Shown: positions 3,729 through 10,372, counted from the stretch's first letter. The stretch is DNA of 32,000 nt from an uncultured Actinomycetes bacterium (GCA_963767005.1 CAVYCN010000004.1:441301-473300), one strand, 5' to 3'. The notes: generated by a model from the sequence alone, not told the origin. A program made the numbers and translations.

Positions 3729-5111
3729 TCAGGCGTGAGCGTAGGCGCTGCCGCCGGTCGGCCTGACCGCCTTGGCCCGCTCGCGGTCGAGCGACAGGAA
3801 CGCCTCGACGCAGTGAGCGTCGAACTGCGTCCCGGCGCCGTTCGCAAGCTCGGCGATGGCGACCTCGTGCGAGAGCGCCGCGCGGTACGGACGGTCCGAC
3901 GTCATGGCGTCGTAGACGTCGGCCACCGCGATGATGCGGGAACCGAGTGGGATGTCCTCACCCGAGAGCCCCTCGGGATAGCCGGTGCCGTCCCAGCGCT
4001 CGTGGTGGTGCATGATGATGTCGGCGCCGGCGCCGAACAGGTTGAACTGCCCGGCCAAGGCCGCACCGGCCGCCGGGTGCTTGTTGATCTGGCGCCGCTC
4101 CTCCTCGGTCAGCTTGCCTTCCTTGAAGAGGATGCGGTTGTCGATCGAGATCTTGCCGAGGTCGTGGATATGCGCCGCTGAGACGACCAACTCGACCATG
4201 TTGCTCGGCAGACCGAGCGCAACCGCAATGCGCTCTGCGTGGTCGGCGACTCGCTTGGAGTGCTCGTAGGTGTACCGGTCGCGCTTGTCGAGGGTGTCGG
4301 CGAGCAGGACAAGGGCCTTCTCGGTGTCCGTCTTCAAGTGTGCGTAGAGCACGAAGCCCTTATACAGGACCCATATCAGCAGCGGGAAGTACAAGAGCGT
4401 CCACGGACTCTGTGCGTATGCGTTCGCGACGACGGCGCCGAGTGGGGCCATCGCCAGATAGAAGACTCCGCCCTCTCGCATCGACAGCAGCCAGCAGCGC
4501 CAGAAGGGCCGTCCGTGCAGGGCGAATACTCCACTCACCAGCATCCCGTTGACTGAGATGAAGACAAGTGCCGCGACGGCGTAGGCTGCGGCGTTCGACG
4601 TTAGACTCACGCTCGGGACAGCTCGCAAGGCTAGGAAGCTCAACCCGGCAAGTCCGCCGATTAGCGTCGACTGGCCACATTCGAAGGCCACCTTCAGCGC
4701 GCCTTTGCGGCGGAGAACTCCCTCCCCGACGAGCGCCCCGATGCACGCCGCCAAGGCACCAAAGGCCGGGCCGAAGAGCACGGCAGCCGCAAACGTGGGC
4801 GTGAAACACAGGGAGATCGCACCGTGATCGGACATGTGGACCGTCCACGAATCGCTCAACGCGATGACTCCCGCGAACAAGGCGAGCGCCGCCCATTGGT
4901 GCTTCGGAAGTGTCGAGAGTGTCGCGAGGACCAGCGTCAGTGCAGCTACGTCGACCGCCGCGACGTAGGCGGGTATCCGGCGTGCTCGTCGACCTATGGT
5001 AGGGAAGTTAGGACGCCGCTCAGCGCCTTCGCTGCGAGCATCTATCGCGGCTGACCGCGTCCTTGGCGACCAGAGCGTCATCATTGGTGCAGTGTCTCCT
5101 GTGCCCGACAC
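3729..5111 (-). CDS. Membrane-bound HD-GYP domain protein (putative c-di-GMP phosphodiesterase)
   Basis: About 7 predicted TM helices in the N-terminal half. The C-terminal half has 'HSKRVADHA', 'AAHIHDLGKI' and 'HHHERWDGTGYPEGL' (HD and HHExxDGxGYP motifs). The exact start is uncertain. Confidence 0.9.
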   Translation of the reverse strand: MSGTGDTAPMMTLWSPRTRSAAIDARSEGAERRPNFPTIGRRARRIPAYVAAVDVAALTLVLATLSTLPKHQWAALALFAGVIALSDSWTVHMSDHGAISLCFTPTFAAAVLFGPAFGALAACIGALVGEGVLRRKGALKVAFECGQSTLIGGLAGLSFLALRAVPSVSLTSNAAAYAVAALVFISVNGMLVSGVFALHGRPFWRCWLLSMREGGVFYLAMAPLGAVVANAYAQSPWTLLYFPLLIWVLYKGFVLYAHLKTDTEKALVLLADTLDKRDRYTYEHSKRVADHAERIAVALGLPSNMVELVVSAAHIHDLGKISIDNRILFKEGKLTEEERRQINKHPAAGAALAGQFNLFGAGADIIMHHHERWDGTGYPEGLSGEDIPLGSRIIAVADVYDAMTSDRPYRAALSHEVAIAELANGAGTQFDAHCVEAFLSLDRERAKAVRPTGGSAYAHA

Positions 5112-5220
5112 CGGCCGCGAACGGCCCGACTCATGGGTGCACGGTGCACGCCCGCCGGTACTTCATTCTCGGTCAGACGTGCGGTTCCCTTGAGTTGACC
5201 ACGGCAGATTGTGCCGCCCC

Positions 5221-5247
5221 GGTCCCGCGGGGACCTTCCCCTATAAT
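5221..5247 (+). promoter_or_regulatory. Candidate -10 (TATAAT 5242-5247) preceded by palindrome ggtccc-gcg-gggacc (5221-5235)
   Basis: Perfect TATAAT lies 27 nt upstream of the GTG start at 5274. The 6-nt-arm palindrome occupies the -35 position. There is no good -35 hexamer at 17 nt spacing, so support is weak. Confidence 0.3.
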
Positions 5248-5273
5248 GCGGCGAAGCGACTCGAGGGGGCCAG

Positions 5274-6863
5274 GTGAGCGAAGAATCCGCGGACAGGGTT
5301 GAGTACCACAGCGTGAAGGCTTTCGCTCGCGAGGAGCCCCGAATTGAGCTCATCGAGACCATGCTCAGGTCGGTTCTCGCGGCGGTTGACCTTGAGTATC
5401 AGGGCAAGCCCGTGCGGATCGACGGCTTTCGACTCCGCGACGCCGAGGATTGGCGCACGGTGCGCGAGACGTCGCTCCAACAAAACCTCGGCTCGTTCTC
5501 CACGGCCTGCAATTGCCACTGCGAATTCTGCTATGAGGACGGGAACCCAGAAGGCCTGTTCGTCAGGGAGCCCCGCTTCGTGAGCCTTGCTGAGGCCAAG
5601 ACGCGGTCGCGGCACGTACACGACGGCCAAGGGATGATGCGCGAGACAAAGTGCTTCTTCGAGCCCTTGGCCAATCCGCAGTTCCTCTCCCTGCTCGAGG
5701 TCGTTCGTGAGCGCCATCCCGACCAGGTGATTGACGTCACGACGAACGGGAGTCTGCTCACGAGCGACGTTGTCGCTCGCCTTGCGGACCTCAAGCCCGT
5801 CTACGTGAACCTTTCGCTGATTTCCGCGAACGGACCGGTTCGTCGGCGCATCATGCGGGACCGCAGGGCACAAACTGCCATCGACGCAATTCGGCACCTT
5901 CGAGCCCGCGAGGTCCCCTTCATGGGGACGCTCGTGCCTCTGCCCGATCAGGGGCTCCAGGATGTCACCGAAACGCTGGAGTACCTCGACGCATACGACG
6001 CCCGACTGGTGCGCGTGGCTCCCCCCGGGCTGAGCCGCTACCATCCAAGCTACAGGCCCGGGATCTTCGAGACGTGGGTGCCCGACCTCGTTGAGCATCT
6101 CTTAGCTGAGCGCCAGCGTCTCGCGACCCCTGTGATCGTCAGCCCCTTCGGCTTCGCCTCGGTGTCGATCGAGCCCATAGTCGAGGGGGTTATTCGCAGC
6201 TCCCCTGCGGCGAGCGCAGGAGTGCGCCTAGGGGACAAGGTGACTGTCGTCGACGGCACCAAGGTCGTGTCGCGCTCGCACGCTGCCAGCCTGCTGCGGC
6301 GGGCAATGAGAGTAGGAGTCGTCGACGTCGAGATCGCGCGCGGCTCGAAAACCAGACGTTTGCACCTGCAAGAGCCCGCCTTCGACGCTGACGCATACCC
6401 GCACAAGCCACGCGGCTACAAGCCGCTCGATTTTGCCGGCATGAGCTTCGGGTTGGTCCTGCCCGGTTCGTTCAAACTGCAATACGTCAAGCAGATACAC
6501 AGCAAGATTCAGGAGCGCAGCGCGAGGCACACGTTGATCGTGGCCTCGTCGTTCTATCGAGAGCTCGTTGAGAACCTGGTTCGCGACTTGCCGCTGCCCG
6601 ACGGTTCCTCGCTTGCCTTGGTCGTGCCGACCAACGGCTATTTCGGCGGGACCGTAAATGTCGGCGACCTGTGGGTGCTCGACGACATCGGTGACGCCGT
6701 CCGGGCCTACGTGCGCTCCCATGGCAAGCCCGACCTGCTGCTAATCCCAAGCTCGTGCCTCTCGCGGTGGGGACGAGACTTGCGTGGCGTGGCATACACG
6801 GAGCTCGAGGCGAGCCTCGGCATCGACATCGCGCTCATCCATTGCGAGCGCATCATTCTGTGA
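5274..6863 (+). CDS. Radical SAM enzyme with internal PDZ domain and DUF512-like C-terminal domain
   Basis: GTG start 4 nt after GAGGGGG. CX3CX2C in 'ACNCHCEFC' (C79/C83/C86), 'DVTTNGSLL' and 'VNLSLISANGPVRRRIM' are radical-SAM core strands. PDZ-like aa ~297-365: 'IVEGVIRSSPAASAGVRLGDKVTVVDGTKV'. DUF512-like tail: 'YFGGTVNVGDLWVLDDIGDAV...LLLIPSSCL'. There is no SPASM/twitch Cys cluster; the only other Cys are C81, C127, C495 and C524. Confidence 0.85.
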   Translation: MSEESADRVEYHSVKAFAREEPRIELIETMLRSVLAAVDLEYQGKPVRIDGFRLRDAEDWRTVRETSLQQNLGSFSTACNCHCEFCYEDGNPEGLFVREPRFVSLAEAKTRSRHVHDGQGMMRETKCFFEPLANPQFLSLLEVVRERHPDQVIDVTTNGSLLTSDVVARLADLKPVYVNLSLISANGPVRRRIMRDRRAQTAIDAIRHLRAREVPFMGTLVPLPDQGLQDVTETLEYLDAYDARLVRVAPPGLSRYHPSYRPGIFETWVPDLVEHLLAERQRLATPVIVSPFGFASVSIEPIVEGVIRSSPAASAGVRLGDKVTVVDGTKVVSRSHAASLLRRAMRVGVVDVEIARGSKTRRLHLQEPAFDADAYPHKPRGYKPLDFAGMSFGLVLPGSFKLQYVKQIHSKIQERSARHTLIVASSFYRELVENLVRDLPLPDGSSLALVVPTNGYFGGTVNVGDLWVLDDIGDAVRAYVRSHGKPDLLLIPSSCLSRWGRDLRGVAYTELEASLGIDIALIHCERIIL

Positions 6864-6870
6864 GGTCATC

Positions 6871-7122
6871 ATGAACGAGATTGCCGGTGAAGCCGAGTAT
6901 GTCTGGCACTTCAAGCTGTCTGCAGACACGGGCGGGATCGGAGCCGGGGACGGCCTGACCGGGATGGTGAGAGAACAGCTCCAGGCGCTCCTGCGTTGCG
7001 TCATCCTCACCGATCACGGCGCGAACCTGAAGGTGACCGGCTTTCGCTTCCTCGACGAACCGGGCGTAGTGCACAGCCTCCACGCGAATTCCCAAGAGGC
7101 TCCCTCACACGAGGGCCATTGA
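6871..7122 (+). CDS. Hypothetical 83-aa protein tightly coupled to the radical SAM gene
   Basis: ATG 6871 lies 5 nt after GAGG (6862-6865), which overlaps the upstream stop codon. Sequence: 'MNEIAGEAEYVWHFKLSADTGGIGAGDGLTGMVREQLQALLRCVILTDHGANLKVTGFRFLDEPGVVHSLHANSQEAPSHEGH'. I recognise no family. The track ORF 6784..7122 extends upstream into the rSAM gene. Confidence 0.55.
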   Translation: MNEIAGEAEYVWHFKLSADTGGIGAGDGLTGMVREQLQALLRCVILTDHGANLKVTGFRFLDEPGVVHSLHANSQEAPSHEGH

Positions 7123-7147
7123 CAGCTCGGGCAGGGAGTCTTAGGGT
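7119..7147 (+). promoter_or_regulatory. Sigma70-type promoter TTGACA-17 nt-TAGGGT upstream of the 37-codon ORF
   Basis: TTGACA at 7119-7124 overlaps the stop of the 83-aa ORF. An exact 17-nt spacer follows, then TAGGGT at 7142-7147 (TAnnnT class). The ATG lies about 47 nt downstream. Confidence 0.45.
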
Positions 7148-7194
7148 CCGACCGGGGTCAATCCGGCCAGTGGGAGCGTGAGATCGGAGGTCAC

Positions 7195-7308
7195 ATGAAC
7201 CAGGCGTTGGATGTCCTTGCGTTGGCCGACGTGGAAGAGGCCGACGAGATCGTCGACACGGTGATCGCCGATCCGCTGCAATTCAAATGGGACTCGCCAC
7301 TCGCCTAG
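7195..7308 (+). CDS. Small acidic peptide (37 aa), candidate precursor/substrate peptide; absent from the ORF track (below size cutoff)
   Basis: ATG 7195 lies 4 nt after GGAGG (7186-7190). It translates to 'MNQALDVLALADVEEADEIVDTVIADPLQFKWDSPLA', stop TAG 7306-7308. GC3 is 30/37 by hand count, against 42/60 for the overlapping minus-strand ORF 7141..7323. It sits between its own promoter and a strong terminator. Confidence 0.5.
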   Translation: MNQALDVLALADVEEADEIVDTVIADPLQFKWDSPLA

Positions 7309-7335
7309 CGAGCTAGCAGCCAAAACGCAAGCCTG

Positions 7336-7379
7336 AGGCGGCGGGCGGGAGGCGCAAAAGCGCCTCCCGCCCGCCGCCT
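7336..7379. terminator. Perfect 20-bp-stem hairpin, likely bidirectional terminator
   Basis: aggcggcgggcgggaggcgc (7336-7355), loop aaaa, gcgcctcccgcccgccgcct (7360-7379). On the + strand it is followed by tttctcc. It lies between the small ORF (+) and the stop of the convergent sensor gene (7391, -). Confidence 0.75.
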
Positions 7380-7390
7380 TTCTCCATCCC

Positions 7391-10372
7391 TCACCCGCTC
7401 ACGCGCACGGCGAGGATCTGCACGTCGTCGCGCAGCCCGTCGGCGTAGCGCTCCACCGCTGCGCCGACGCCCTGCGCCACGGCCTGCACATCGCCGTCGC
7501 GCAGCTCGTCCATGACGTCGAGCAGACGCCGTTCGCCGAACATCTCGCGGCGGCGGCGCGCCTCGGTCACGCCGTCGGTGTACAGCAGCAGGGTGTCGCC
7601 GGCGAGCAATGGGAGCTGGCGCACCGAGAAGCTCGCCGGAAAGGCGCCGAGCGGCGGGTGGAACGGCAGCTCGAGCAGCTCGGCGCGCGCCCCCCTGCGG
7701 ACGAGGACCGGTGGCGGATGGCCGGCGCTTGCCAGCACGGCCTGTCCGCGTGCGACGTCGACCGCGAGGAGCAAGGCGGTCACGAGCTGGCCGTGGCCCG
7801 GCTCGTGCAGCAGCAGGTCGTTGACGTGTCGAAGCACGTACTCGGGCGACGGGGTGATGAGCGTCAGCACACGCATGGCGCTGCGCACCGTCTCGGTCAT
7901 GCCGGCGGCGCCGATGCCCTTGCCTGTGACGTCGCCGATCAGCAGGGCCACAAGGCCTTTCCGGGCGACAAGCACGTCGTGAAAGTCGCCGCCCACGAGG
8001 TCGGGACGGTTGGCGGGGCGCGAGACAGCGGCCAGCTCGAGCCCCTCCACCCGGGGCATGGGGTGGATGAGGTGCGCCTGCAGCACGGTCGCGATATCGC
8101 GTTGGGTCTCGAAGAGACGGGCGTTCTCGAGGCCGGTCGTGGCCGCGGCCGCGATCGCTTCGAGCAGAGTGAGCTCGTCGGGCGCCACGTCGTGGACCCG
8201 CTTCCAGGCGGCGAACAGCGTGCCGATCGCGTTGCCGCCGGCCCGGAGCGGCAGGATGGCGAAGGCGCGCACGCCGGTCGCCTGCGCAGCGCGCCGCGAG
8301 GTCCTGGTCACCTCTTGGACCTGCGCGTCGGCGCCGACGCGCGGCTGGCCTGTCCTGAAGCAGATCGCCGTCTCGCGGTCGGCGCCGACCGGCATCGACC
8401 CCTCGACCTGGAGTCGACCGGAAGGGTCGAACGTGGCGACAGGCTCGAGCGACCTGCCGTTCGCGTCGGCCAGGCGGATCTGCACCTGATCGGCGTCGAG
8501 CAGGCGGCGGACCTCGTCGACCACCGCGCCGGCGGCTGTGGCGACGTCGAGCGACGCCGACGCCGACTCGGCCACCCTGCGCAGCACCTGGAGTTGCCTG
8601 CTGCGCCGTTCCTCGGCCTCGCGTGACGCGACCTCCGCCTCGAGCAGGCGGGCGTTGTCGAGGGCGAGCGAGACGGTGGCGCCGAGCTTGCGCCCGAAGT
8701 CCGTCTCGGCGGGGCTGAACGCACGCGGGGTCTTGCCGTAGGCGAGCAGGCAGCCGGTCACCTGTTCGCGGACCAGCAGCGGCACGCCGAGGACCGACCG
8801 CAGTCGGTGTTCGCGGACGAAGCCAACGTCGAAGGCGGAATCGTGCATGTCGGCGATCGCGAGGAGGCTCCTGGTCTCCTCGGCGCGCACGGCGATGGGT
8901 GCCACCTCGTCGGGCAGGAGCGCGCCGGTGGCCGACGGATCGAGGCCATACTGGTAACGGACCAGCCAGCCGCCGGCGGCGCGGATCTCGATGGCGCCGG
9001 CGTCGAGGCGCAGCGCACGCACGCCGGCGTCGAGGGCGCGCTGCATGATCTCGTCGGCGGTGAACGTGGCATGGACGAGCCGGTTGATCCCGTTGAGCGC
9101 CTCGCTCAGCCGCACCCGCTCGGCGAGCTCCGGGGTCTGCGAGCGCAGCTCATCGGCCTGGAGTCGCAGCTCCTCGCCCTGCGCCCGCTCGGCCGTGACG
9201 TCGGTGTGCAGCGCGAGGTTGGCGACGTGTGTGCCGGATTTGTCGTGCAGCGGGCTTGCGTTGAAGCGCGTCCAGAGAGTGCCGCCGTCGCTGCGGAGAA
9301 AGGCGAACTCGCCGGTCGCGATCTCGCCGCCGCCGAGCTTGTGGCGGAGCGCGTCGACGTCGCCGCGCCACTCCGGCGAGGCGAAGTCGGTGCTCGACTT
9401 GCCGAGGATCTCCTCGACGGGGTAGCCGAGCATCTCGGCCATGCGTGGATTGACGTAGGTGTACGCACCGTCGAGCCGGGCGATGGCGACGCCCTCGGCG
9501 GCCGTCTCGACGATCGTGCGGTATCGCTCCTCGCTATCCTGCAGGCGCCCGAGAAGCTCGTCGCGGTCGGCCTCACGCCGCTTGCGCGCACCGATCTCGA
9601 TGCTGAACTGGTTGATGCCGTGGACGGTCGGATAGAGGCGCTGCTCGAACCAGGTCTCGAGCGGCGGGAACCAGAACTCGTAGCGGCTCGCGATACCGAG
9701 GTGCATGGCGTCGAGCAGGCGCCGCTCGACGTCGGTCCCCACTATGTCGGGGAACAGGTCCCACAACGAGTGGCCCAGCAACTCGGCGGGCGTCAGGCCG
9801 GTCATCTCGCAGAAGCTGCGATTGACGTACAGGTGGTGGAACTCCCAATCGAGCGCCGCGAAGAGCTCGTCGATGTCCTCGAGGAACGTGGGTTGGCCCG
9901 ACGGGTCGAACGCGGGGATGGCGCTCGGCGCGGCGTCCGGCGCCGCGACCGCGTCGCGCTTGACCAGCCGCACCTGGAGGCCGCAGTCGCTGGACAGGGC
10001 GACCTCGTCGCAAAGCCGCGAGATCAGGAACAAGCCGCGGCCGTGGTCGAGGCTGGGGTCGGGCACTCGGTCGGGCGTGAAGGCAGCCACGTCGAAACCG
10101 TGGCCCGCATCCTTCACCGTGGCGATCACATGGCCGTCGTCGAAGCTCAGGGAGATCTCGATCTCGGCGCGAGAGCCGCTGTGGCGGATGGCGTTGGTGC
10201 AGGCTTCCTCGATGGCGAGCACGAGGTCGTGAACGGTGGCGGCCTCGGCGCAGTGCCCGCTCAGATACTCGCGCAGCCGTTCGCGGGCGCGCGCCAGATG
10301 GGCCGGGTCGGGAGCCAGGCGAAAGCGCAGCCGCGGCCCAACGTTCGTTCGTCTGGAGAAGCTGTCGGTCAC
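7391..10372 (-). CDS. Multidomain sensor: RsbW-like HATPase kinase module + 2 PAS + 2 GAF + PP2C/SpoIIE phosphatase
   Basis: GTG start. N-terminus has 'AIEEACTNAIRHSG', 'DAGHGF' and 'GRGLFLISRL' (anti-sigma-factor-type ATPase). PAS-like segment 'SEERYRTIVETAAEGVAIARLDG...'. Two GAF-like blocks. C-terminal 'GGDFHDV', 'IGDVTGKGIGAAGM' and 'LLLYTDGVTEARR' are PP2C/SpoIIE motifs. Confidence 0.9.
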   Translation of the reverse strand: MTDSFSRRTNVGPRLRFRLAPDPAHLARARERLREYLSGHCAEAATVHDLVLAIEEACTNAIRHSGSRAEIEISLSFDDGHVIATVKDAGHGFDVAAFTPDRVPDPSLDHGRGLFLISRLCDEVALSSDCGLQVRLVKRDAVAAPDAAPSAIPAFDPSGQPTFLEDIDELFAALDWEFHHLYVNRSFCEMTGLTPAELLGHSLWDLFPDIVGTDVERRLLDAMHLGIASRYEFWFPPLETWFEQRLYPTVHGINQFSIEIGARKRREADRDELLGRLQDSEERYRTIVETAAEGVAIARLDGAYTYVNPRMAEMLGYPVEEILGKSSTDFASPEWRGDVDALRHKLGGGEIATGEFAFLRSDGGTLWTRFNASPLHDKSGTHVANLALHTDVTAERAQGEELRLQADELRSQTPELAERVRLSEALNGINRLVHATFTADEIMQRALDAGVRALRLDAGAIEIRAAGGWLVRYQYGLDPSATGALLPDEVAPIAVRAEETRSLLAIADMHDSAFDVGFVREHRLRSVLGVPLLVREQVTGCLLAYGKTPRAFSPAETDFGRKLGATVSLALDNARLLEAEVASREAEERRSRQLQVLRRVAESASASLDVATAAGAVVDEVRRLLDADQVQIRLADANGRSLEPVATFDPSGRLQVEGSMPVGADRETAICFRTGQPRVGADAQVQEVTRTSRRAAQATGVRAFAILPLRAGGNAIGTLFAAWKRVHDVAPDELTLLEAIAAAATTGLENARLFETQRDIATVLQAHLIHPMPRVEGLELAAVSRPANRPDLVGGDFHDVLVARKGLVALLIGDVTGKGIGAAGMTETVRSAMRVLTLITPSPEYVLRHVNDLLLHEPGHGQLVTALLLAVDVARGQAVLASAGHPPPVLVRRGARAELLELPFHPPLGAFPASFSVRQLPLLAGDTLLLYTDGVTEARRRREMFGERRLLDVMDELRDGDVQAVAQGVGAAVERYADGLRDDVQILAVRVSG

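Follow-up and report, generated by a model that had tools for sequence, protein, structure and literature searches.

A candidate peptide-maturation cassette with a PDZ-containing, cobalamin-type radical SAM enzyme in an uncultured Actinomycetes bacterium

A 2.1-kb stretch of DNA from an uncultured Actinomycetes bacterium is best read as a peptide-maturation cassette of a kind for which we found no description in the literature searched. The stretch lies in the window, the 32,000 nucleotides of contig that were analysed (GCA_963767005.1 CAVYCN010000004.1:441301-473300). Re-reading of the sequence places four elements between positions 5221 and 7379, a 529-aa radical SAM enzyme, an 83-aa ORF (the partner), a 37-aa ORF and a hairpin, all where the initial annotation had put them (Table 1). 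It is rather probable, on the sequence comparisons and predicted structures described here, that the three genes form a self-contained cassette that acts on the 37-aa peptide in the manner proposed below.

The presence or absence of similar small ORFs near homologous radical SAM genes had been set beforehand as the test of this idea. Homologous loci were retrieved by a metagenome scan with the family alignment (a single-protein scan of genome contigs gave one locus only). The 83-aa family is present in 53 of the 63 loci that have a complete enzyme gene, and the 37-aa family in all 12 close-clade loci, despite different flanking genes. In relatives with 55–69% identical enzymes, the frame and sequence of the two small ORFs are preserved, which is more conservation than chance would be expected to leave. 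The central inference of a peptide-modification cassette is thus supported by the conserved small ORFs beside the enzyme, and three details of the original reading are corrected below.

Table 1. Features of the cassette (positions counted from the first nucleotide of the window).
Feature	Position	Strand	Evidence
TATAAT -10-like box, candidate operon promoter P1	5242..5247	+	Upstream-region alignment, 8 close-clade loci
529-aa radical SAM enzyme	5274..6863	+	GTG-initiated ORF, Pfam domains, AlphaFold model
N-terminal domain (aa 19-56; EPRIELI...VRIDGFRLRD), partner paralogue	5328..5441	+	hhalign
CX3CX2C cluster motif C79/C83/C86, then Y87	5508..5534	+	Homologue alignment
PDZ domain, aa 300-364	6171..6365	+	Pfam PDZ_2 and PDZ_6
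DUF512-like C-terminal domain, aa 406-522	6489..6839	+	Pfam, model, profile matches
83-aa partner protein, new family	6871..7122	+	ORF, GAGG upstream, locus conservation
Promoter-like element P2, TTGACA-N17-TAGGGT, overlaps partner stop codon	7119..7147	+	Pattern conservation
GGAGG ribosome-binding site of peptide ORF	7186..7190	+	Read from sequence
37-aa acidic peptide MNQALDVLALADVEEADEIVDTVIADPLQFKWDSPLA, candidate precursor	7195..7308	+	Close-clade homologues, pN/pS
Perfect 20-bp G+C-rich hairpin, convergent genes on either side	7336..7379	.	Repeat and fold computation

From the N-terminus onwards, the enzyme consists of a helix-hairpin domain, the radical SAM core, the PDZ domain and a DUF512-like cobalamin-type domain. 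Reading frame and Pfam agree on the radical SAM assignment made at the outset: Radical_SAM (PF04055) matches residues 75–238 (E = 1.2e-15, 58.5 bits against a cut-off of 29.5), and C79, C83 and C86, which stand in the sequence CNCHCEFC, are invariant in 66 homologues. By these sequence matches the enzyme is a member of the superfamily. The PDZ segment proposed earlier is found by Pfam as PDZ_2 (E = 3.8e-8); PDZ_2 and PDZ_6 both score over their Pfam cut-offs, and the enzyme family profile matches the PDZ domains of RseP and DegP with E-values of 1e-18 to 1e-12. The AlphaFold model (pLDDT 93) has its best PDB folds, as ranked by Foldseek, in csDUF512 [PDB: 9CG1, E = 9e-15], pfDUF512 [PDB: 9CG2, E = 1e-12] and Mmp10 [E about 1e-8], which outrank all other radical SAM enzymes over alignments of about 485–505 columns. 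The family profile likewise finds 9CG2 (E = 5.5e-14) and 9CG1 (E = 9.4e-10), so that these two proteins (PMC11659888) are the best PDB matches both in fold and in sequence.

DUF512 was shown in 2024 to be a cobalamin-binding domain of Mmp10-type radical SAM enzymes (PMC11659888), and the earlier remark that DUF512-type radical SAM proteins have no assigned function is therefore outdated. In ‘class 2’ cobalamin-dependent enzymes this domain lies C-terminal to the core and has an α/β fold of four parallel strands, in which a helix precedes strand 1 and a short one comes after strand 2. In the model of our enzyme, residues 403–522 run helix, β1, helix, β2, short helix (464–466), helix, β3, helix, β4, and a profile of the C-terminal domain by itself ranks 9CG1 and 9CG2 first in the PDB (E = 0.016–0.017). 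The lower-axial leucine, the residue after the third cysteine and the short helix past strand 2 are features of the class (PMC11659888, PMC13331322). L466, in a GDL motif, is at least 90% conserved and aligns exactly with the lower-axial leucine of csDUF512 (L366 in 9CG1); against 9CG2 it falls on the leucine pair of AGLL, which is L286 in the paper, one off in the chain index. Y87, directly after C86, is also at least 90% conserved (Met in a few members) and takes the position of the ‘sandwich’ residues Y23 of Mmp10, F95 of csDUF512 and Y47 of pfDUF512, which sit between cluster and cobalamin (PMC11659888). In the solved class 2 proteins a Thr or Ser hydrogen-bonds N3 of the dimethylbenzimidazole tail and lies 43, 34 and 31 residues before the leucine; S425 of our enzyme is nearly invariant and precedes L466 by 41 residues, at a position that is outside every alignment. 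By fold and key residues the modelled enzyme belongs with Mmp10, csDUF512 and pfDUF512 in class 2, the topology being that of a predicted and not a solved structure, and its DUF512-like domain is a candidate cobalamin-binding fold.

The DUF512-like tail noticed initially does match Pfam DUF512 (PF04459), covering model positions 87–200 of 202, and the score of 23.9 bits is below the gathering threshold of 25; a precomputed match exists in some homologues only. Membership in PF04459 was rejected on this score, and from sequence we treat the enzyme as a divergent sister family to Pfam DUF512. A lower-axial leucine together with a hydrophobic sandwich residue has been linked to radical methylation, and not all cobalamin-dependent radical SAM enzymes are methylases (PMC11659888). 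By analogy, the chemistry of the present enzyme is probably cobalamin-dependent radical C-methylation.

The ATG of the 83-codon ORF follows the stop codon of the enzyme gene after 7 nt, as first described, and the two genes are probably translationally coupled. The product has no match in Pfam or NCBIfam and no PDB fold match, and none of 34 homologues has a Pfam match. Profile comparison with hhalign aligns residues 25–62 of the partner with residues 19–56 of the enzyme (probability 95%, E = 3e-8), and the partner HMM also matches the N-terminal region of the enzyme in many loci; these alignments show the partner to be a free-standing paralogue of the enzyme N-terminal domain. Of the 53 loci that have it, 39 encode it next to the enzyme and 14 as a fusion, in each case to the enzyme N-terminus, and in all of the remaining 10 of the 63 at least one flank is short. 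As judged from this census the partner is an obligate companion of the enzyme, fused in some lineages. The family comprises 384 clusters at the 50% identity level in a set of 1.84 billion representatives. The model has a helix (residues 25–43) and hairpins with pLDDT > 90 for residues 30–70, and it is this well-folded core that is conserved, the tails being variable. Searches with Pfam on the partner and its 34 homologues, and of PDB folds, detect neither a PqqD-like RiPP recognition element in the cassette nor any similarity of the partner to known elements of this kind.

The 37-codon ORF, whose sequence is exactly that quoted in the initial annotation, is also called by public gene callers. 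The peptide may be divided into a leader (roughly residues 1–20) and a part containing the conserved core motif ADPLxF[KRH][WF]. In the homologues the leader D-V-L-A-L-A-E-x-E-E-A-D-E is conserved and the C-terminal part is variable; one locus (L093) has kept the leader and has a different core. Values of pN/pS between 0.3 and 0.75, with pS near saturation, point to purifying selection on the peptide. As is expected of RiPP loci, the putative precursor gene lies beside the enzyme gene, and a conserved leader is joined to a more variable core. Because the peptide is too short for a protein homologue search, the family was sought among the ORFs of the retrieved loci, where the iterated HMM found no match past the close clade. 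Since the family is restricted to a single clade, with enzymes at least 55% identical, its co-occurrence with the enzyme could in part reflect inherited synteny; in most close-clade loci the HD-domain gene upstream is syntenic as well. The peptide C-termini are not conserved, so that no classical PDZ ligand is apparent there.

Upstream of the enzyme gene, CCTATAAT is nearly invariant across eight close-clade regions whose surroundings are divergent (a single G variant of the box occurs in L009), and this box is a candidate promoter (P1) of the operon. The peptide ORF had been credited with a promoter of its own. A generic sigma-70 scan finds none before this ORF, as the -10 box fits only 3/6 consensus positions; by reading and pattern matching across the close-clade loci, an element TTGACR-N17/18-TAGNNT was found ahead of the ORF in 9/9 loci first examined and in 2/4 fetched later, and the claim survives as a conserved promoter-like element (P2). 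The Shine–Dalgarno sequence is present as described, 4 nt before the ATG, and relatives have purine-rich sites at the equivalent position. Downstream, the perfect stem reported earlier has two 20-nt arms (7336–7355 and 7360–7379) that are 100% complementary around a 4-nt loop, with a fold energy of -57.3 kcal/mol (z = -7.4 against shuffles). The T-run past it is weak (TTTCT). Lying between convergent genes, the hairpin could terminate both and is probably the terminator of both; the peptide gene of L001 has an equivalent hairpin behind it.

Among the genes of the cassette there is no protease, exporter or transporter, and domain annotation finds no mutase or corrinoid genes near it. Rfam detects no riboswitch, cobalamin riboswitches included, in the window; its sole match is to a tRNA. 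The neighbours of the cassette are signalling proteins with HD_5 and PAS/GAF/SpoIIE domains.

In more distant clades the enzyme is accompanied by other small candidate substrates, often near further radical SAM genes (HxsC-like, B12-binding-type and SPASM-type) and, in several loci, an S8 peptidase; one of these distant relatives is from the cultured Dehalobacterium formicoaceticum. The locus L096 encodes a 36-aa ORF with a similar leader and the ‘DLMxxxCR’ motif of a distant clade's small proteins (family C HMM, E = 1.9e-4). The peptide family and the ‘DEFDVDLMACGCRL’ small-protein family do not match significantly in a profile–profile comparison, and homology of the two is not claimed, the ORF of L096 being the sole link. 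Pfam and NCBIfam searches of the peptide and the other small-ORF families return nothing but a borderline Tat-signal match. One clade, in which the partner is fused, lies within acyl-CoA mutase operons, between the genes for the large and the B12-binding subunit in at least nine loci, and has no obvious small peptide, so that the substrates of the family are not uniformly small peptides.

Mmp10 (PDB: 7QBS) is the only characterised member of the structural class and C-methylates a residue of a polypeptide (PMC11659888, PMC8828468). It resembles our enzyme in the order of radical SAM core and C-terminal, four-stranded domain of the cobalamin-binding type, in the hydrophobic residue past the third cysteine and in the lower-axial leucine, and its substrate is a polypeptide, as is proposed for ours. 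It lacks a PDZ domain, the N-terminal helix-hairpin domain and a partner protein; it modifies a large enzyme of archaea, whereas the candidate substrate here is an adjacent small peptide, and the NCBIfam model for Mmp10 does not match the window enzyme. csDUF512 and pfDUF512 share with the window enzyme the FGG...(A/G)(G/D)L motif with its axial leucine, and csDUF512 also has a PDZ domain. In csDUF512, however, the PDZ domain stands at the N-terminus, where it completes a shortened barrel, whereas that of our enzyme comes after the core and before the cobalamin-type domain; the cluster of csDUF512 is ligated by a DDD motif, and none is seen, on reading the sequence, in roughly 30 residues after C86. 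A csDUF512-type architecture was rejected on these two differences. Class 1 B12-dependent radical SAM RiPP C-methyltransferases (the NCBIfam TIGR03975 type, and the polytheonamide and bottromycin enzymes) have an N-terminal five-stranded B12-binding domain. They would have in common with the present system the cobalamin-dependent radical C-methylation of a ribosomal peptide, as predicted here, but the window enzyme has a C-terminal, Mmp10-type domain and its homology to class 1 is confined to the radical SAM core.

The example of Mmp10, which modifies the large enzyme methyl-coenzyme M reductase (PMC11659888), raises the alternative that the real substrate is larger, either the 83-aa partner or an unlinked enzyme, with the 37-aa ORF encoding an unrelated small regulatory or structural protein that travels with the operon. 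The fused clade inside acyl-CoA mutase operons suggests a protein target there, and the partner is conserved more widely than any single small-ORF family. We consider this explanation unlikely for the window cassette, as fusion in 14 loci and paralogy to an enzyme domain fit an accessory module better than a substrate. The well-folded core of the partner is conserved and its tails vary; moreover, a conserved promoter-like element of its own precedes the peptide ORF, the peptide is conserved in a leader/core pattern, and in other clades a different small ORF always adjoins the gene pair.

The initial annotation also drew a parallel to the PQQ (PqqA/D/E) and mycofactocin (MftA/B/C) systems. This holds for the gene layout, a radical SAM enzyme with a protein of about 90 residues and a short peptide, and fails for the proteins themselves. 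A SPASM domain is present in both PqqE and MftC, and the recognition elements PqqD and MftB have a winged-helix fold. The window enzyme has no Pfam match to a SPASM domain, scores 22.6 bits against a cut-off of 265 with the mycofactocin maturase model TIGR03962, and has no PqqE among the NCBIfam matches listed for it. The partner, with no Pfam, NCBIfam or PDB match and with its kinship to the enzyme N-terminal domain, is not of the PqqD/MftB type. Membership in either family was rejected, there being no SPASM domain and no PqqD.

The same layout bears on the alternative that the peptide is the substrate and the product an excised small redox cofactor or signalling molecule, as for PQQ and mycofactocin, made by cross-linking or another non-methylating radical reaction. 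The compact set of enzyme, partner of roughly 85 residues and short peptide without an exporter would suit it, as would the conserved aromatic and basic motif of the peptide (F/W, K/R/H, W/F), the signalling proteins next door and the existence of cobalamin-dependent radical SAM enzymes that are not methylases (PMC11659888). This outcome appears quite improbable: SPASM and auxiliary-cluster domains are missing from the enzyme, the partner is not PqqD-like, the peptidases, oxidases and glycosyltransferases that such pathways require are absent from the cassette, and the lower-axial leucine and hydrophobic sandwich residue are those tied to radical methylation (PMC11659888).

Genes for cofactor chaperones might be expected in B12-dependent mutase operons. 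A role of the enzyme in cobalamin or small-molecule metabolism (corrinoid loading or repair, for example), with the small proteins as carriers or chaperones, would accord with the cobalamin-type domain and the clade tied to such operons, but is very improbable, given that no mutase or corrinoid genes are near the window cassette and no cobalamin riboswitch is in the window, that PDZ domains bind polypeptides, and that the leader/core pattern of the peptide and the RiPP-like neighbours in other clades would be left unexplained.

[quoted passage not shown] A hydrogen atom would then be abstracted at the [4Fe-4S]/SAM site from a residue within the conserved D-P-L-x-F-(K/R/H)-(W/F), and methylcobalamin would give a methyl group, as in Mmp10, to yield a C-methylated peptide. 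As the cassette has neither protease nor exporter, the product may act inside the cell or undergo processing by unlinked genes.

A wider proposal is more tentative, and our confidence in it stops a little short of an even judgement: that the cassette represents the first substrate-linked branch of Mmp10/DUF512-type enzymes acting on ribosomal peptides, and a new RiPP class whose precursor is recognised by an internal PDZ domain together with a split module of two parts, the enzyme–partner pair being redeployed on varied substrates. The split module may consist of the enzyme N-terminal domain and its free paralogue, in place of a PqqD-like element, and the substrates may include acidic-leader peptides, proteins with Tat-like signals and possibly B12-dependent acyl-CoA mutases.

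[quoted passage not shown] Modification of the peptide, if it occurs, would be the first reaction for this branch of the class, would give a role to a PDZ domain in a radical SAM enzyme and would introduce a new type of module for precursor recognition; several hundred related loci, one of them in the cultured Dehalobacterium formicoaceticum, would then be available for mining. The clade in acyl-CoA mutase operons could point to an unrecognised step in the maturation of B12 enzymes.

All four elements listed by the initial annotation, which had proposed a RiPP-like peptide-maturation cassette, were found as described: the genes for the 529-aa radical SAM enzyme, the 83-aa partner and the 37-aa acidic candidate precursor peptide, and a perfect hairpin. 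Pfam models place Radical_SAM at residues 75–238 of the enzyme, PDZ_2 and PDZ_6 at 300–364 and DUF512 at 406–522, the last slightly below threshold (23.9 bits versus a cut-off of 25); the PDZ domain separates the radical SAM core from the cobalamin-type domain. The homologue search yielded about 90 proteins; almost all derive from metagenomes or from uncultured Actinobacteria/Thermoleophilia, and their names are uninformative throughout.

Features of the cassette, its surroundings and the homologous loci (positions without a prefix are those of the window; L numbers denote fetched homologous loci)
Feature	Location	Strand	Remarks
HD_5/HD-domain gene, 460-aa membrane protein	3729-5111	-	divergent from cassette
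Region with conserved CTTGAGC-like motif and CCTATAAT box	5185-5247		5' of enzyme gene
Palindrome GGTCCC-GCG-GGGACC	5221-5235		window only
Enzyme ORF, 529 aa	5274..6863	+	GTG start; C79/C83/C86
Partner ORF, 83 codons	6871..7122		starts 7 nt past enzyme stop codon
Peptide ORF, 37 codons	7195..7308		GGAGG site upstream
Perfect 20-bp hairpin	7336-7379		-57 kcal/mol, z = -7.4; between peptide ORF and PAS/GAF/SpoIIE gene
PAS/GAF/SpoIIE gene, 993-aa signalling protein	7391-10372	-	HATPase_c_2, two PAS, two GAF, SpoIIE phosphatase; convergent with cassette
tRNA gene	18185-18257	-	sole Rfam match in window
36-aa ORF	L096:4295-4405		MEREAAQKIDLLVLAEEEETDERVDLMSAACRTARS
Tandem-repeat partner	L013:5261-5683
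Tat-like-signal proteins	L005:5897-6283; L036:5353-5712		16 further loci
Dehalobacterium formicoaceticum CP022121.1 cluster	L088:1652-8273		two family enzymes, HxsC-like radical SAM gene, 74-aa ORF ending HVSFSWG, S8 peptidase, partner
Acyl-CoA mutase operon, fused clade	L073:1481-7469		also L041, L043, L050, L055, L056, L061, L066, L069

An AlphaFold model of the enzyme (66-sequence alignment, mean pLDDT 93) has its strongest PDB fold matches in csDUF512 (9cg1, E = 9e-15), pfDUF512 (9cg2, E = 1e-12) and Mmp10 (E ~1e-8), over ~485–505 alignment columns; lower matches (SkfB, SuiB) cover ~230–330. At sequence level, the family profile hits 9cg2 (5.5e-14) and 9cg1 (9.4e-10) as well, and both are the best PDB matches when the profile is limited to the C-terminal domain. 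In ‘class 2’ cobalamin-dependent radical SAM enzymes, DUF512 forms the cobalamin-binding domain at the C-terminus, and all four DUF512 proteins assayed bind cobalamin and form methylcobalamin (PMC11659888). Three class 2 hallmarks were compared: the hydrophobic residue after the third cysteine is Y87 in the window enzyme; in the profile of the C-terminal domain the near-invariant L466 (FGG..V.VGDLW) aligns with the lower-axial leucine L366 of csDUF512 and its pfDUF512 equivalent, and the predicted topology of the C-terminal domain is as class 2 expects, including a short helix (residues 464–466) after strand 2. Because fold matches, Y87, the L466 alignment and predicted topology agree, the enzyme is, on its model, structurally a class 2 cobalamin-dependent radical SAM protein. 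It stands beside Pfam DUF512 as a divergent sister, differs in architecture, and has Mmp10 and the two orphan proteins of solved structure, csDUF512 and pfDUF512, as its nearest known relatives. No DDD motif was seen on reading the ~30 residues of the enzyme that follow C86.

An HMM made from five partner homologues was used to search the ORFs of the window and of 86 loci (87 sequences in all), and counts were restricted to the 63 non-redundant loci in which the enzyme gene is complete. The partner lies downstream of the enzyme in 34, upstream in five and fused to the enzyme N-terminus in 14; in each of the 10 loci from which it is missing, one or both flanks are short. Judged by gene content, the partner is an obligate companion of the enzyme. 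Its family comprises 384 clusters (50% identity) among 1.84 billion representatives, mostly of 70–130 aa, some being N-terminal portions of 518–685-aa proteins. The HMM additionally matches the N-terminal region of the enzyme itself (hhalign, partner residues 25–62 against enzyme residues 19–56, probability 95%, E = 3e-8), which identifies the partner, at the level of profiles, as a free-standing paralogue of that domain. Its predicted structure consists of a helix and β-hairpins (pLDDT >90 for residues 30–70) with the N-terminal YVWHFKL segment unplaced, and gave no match in a PDB fold search; neither small ORF matched any Pfam or NCBIfam model. A PqqD-like identity was rejected on these searches. 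The cassette is laid out like PQQ and mycofactocin loci but belongs to neither family, since the SPASM domain and a PqqD-like protein are both missing. Some family members carry the helix-hairpin module in duplicate, as a tandem-repeat partner (L013) or an additional N-terminal copy in 600–606-aa enzymes (P0084 and P0085).

The small ORFs on which the initial annotation built its proposal are conserved with homologous enzymes, the partner (adjacent or fused) in 53 of 63 loci and the peptide in 12/12 loci of the close clade (enzyme identity 55–69%; window, L001, L002/3, L007–L012, L092, L093 and L095; L094 repeats L008, and L010 is truncated), to which the peptide family is limited. The flanks of the peptide vary: the SpoIIE gene, which shares the hairpin with the cassette, is kept among the fetched loci only in L001, a MalT-like regulator replaces it in L002, and the neighbours in L093 and L095 are different again. 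The leader consensus D-V-L-A-L-A-E-x-E-E-A-D-E is followed by 4–6 residues, the core consensus (D)A-D-P-L-x-(F/W)-(K/R/H)-(W/F/T/S) and a variable tail of 4–15 residues; the L093 peptide keeps the leader and differs in its C-terminal part (EEGLTYHVIGL). RiPP precursors show the same combination, a leader that is conserved and a core that varies. The pN/pS ratio is 0.3–0.75 with pS near saturation, and public gene callers also predict the ORF. A promoter-like element (TTGACR-N17/18-TAGNNT) precedes it in 9/9 close-clade loci first examined and 2/4 fetched later, and a purine-rich ribosome-binding site in 9/9 of the former.

The enzyme gene is preceded by its own conserved box, CCTATAAT. The CTTGAGC-like motif lies ~50 nt before this box, too distant for a -35 element, and the window alone has the palindrome as well; this may be the site of a regulator. 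Most close-clade loci keep the HD-domain gene in the same place (L001, L007, L008, L009, L012, L068, L092, L094), and it is missing from the examined flanks of L002/3, L011 and L093; its position may reflect a functional link or inherited synteny.

The peptide is probably the substrate of the enzyme; that the substrate is a protein and the peptide incidental appears unlikely. The leader would be bound by the partner and the enzyme N-terminal domain and the C-terminal part held by the PDZ domain; by analogy with Mmp10, radical hydrogen abstraction would be followed by transfer of a methyl group from methylcobalamin to a residue in the D-P-L-x-F-K-W segment, and the cassette would work as RiPP systems do. 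C-methylation is a tentative assignment. A peptide-derived cofactor or a non-methylating chemistry is rather improbable, and a role of the enzyme in corrinoid or small-molecule metabolism very improbable. The analysis is computational throughout and the structural placement is that of a predicted model; in these terms the domain architecture, structural class, conserved cofactor-pocket residues, obligate partner and conserved peptide with its own candidate promoter are established. A literature search found no description of the enzyme architecture, the partner or the peptide.

Distant enzyme clades (27–44% identity) keep the partner and have other small ORFs. The 36-aa ORF of L096, with a leader resembling that of the window peptide plus a ‘VDLMSAACR’ segment, sits among three radical SAM genes and shares a DLMxxxCR motif with 60–117-aa proteins of another clade. 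These form the ‘EDEFDVDLMACGCRL’ family, encoded ahead of the partner gene in six of the fetched loci, of which five are distinct; the HMM of this family matches the 36-aa ORF (E = 1.9e-4); direct profile comparison of this family with the peptide family was not significant. Elsewhere, in a distant clade, the enzyme and partner genes of 18 fetched loci, including two duplicate pairs, flank genes for proteins of 115–161 aa (mostly 115–135), with two copies each in L027 and L033. These proteins carry a Tat-like signal (RRDFLTKAVAAAGA), and their conserved C-terminus reads ...NGH...GK.S.M.L.LEWS or LLYSP, the final residues being ...LKLEWS or ...LALLYSP; family models gave only a borderline Tat-signal match. 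ORFs of 74–85 aa ending ...SFSWG or ...SISWG occur in L017 (85 aa, LHLSISWG) and in the complete genome of the cultured bacterium Dehalobacterium formicoaceticum, which carries a larger cluster of the enzyme family (L088); their neighbours are two family enzymes and an HxsC-like radical SAM gene. The radical SAM gene of L088 recurs in L017, L023 has an extra radical SAM gene and peptidase as in L088, and L004 adds B12-binding-type and SPASM-type radical SAM genes and a 50-aa Cys-rich ORF.

Acyl-CoA mutase operons enclose at least nine loci of the fused clade, often with the fused gene placed between those for the large and B12-binding subunits, as in L073 (MM_CoA_mutase large subunit, fused radical SAM gene, B12-binding small subunit, CoA-transferase III, enoyl-CoA hydratase). 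This position hints at a connection with the maturation of B12-dependent mutases or the handling of their cofactor. The enzyme–partner pair resembles a unit for polypeptide modification that was put to new use on different targets.
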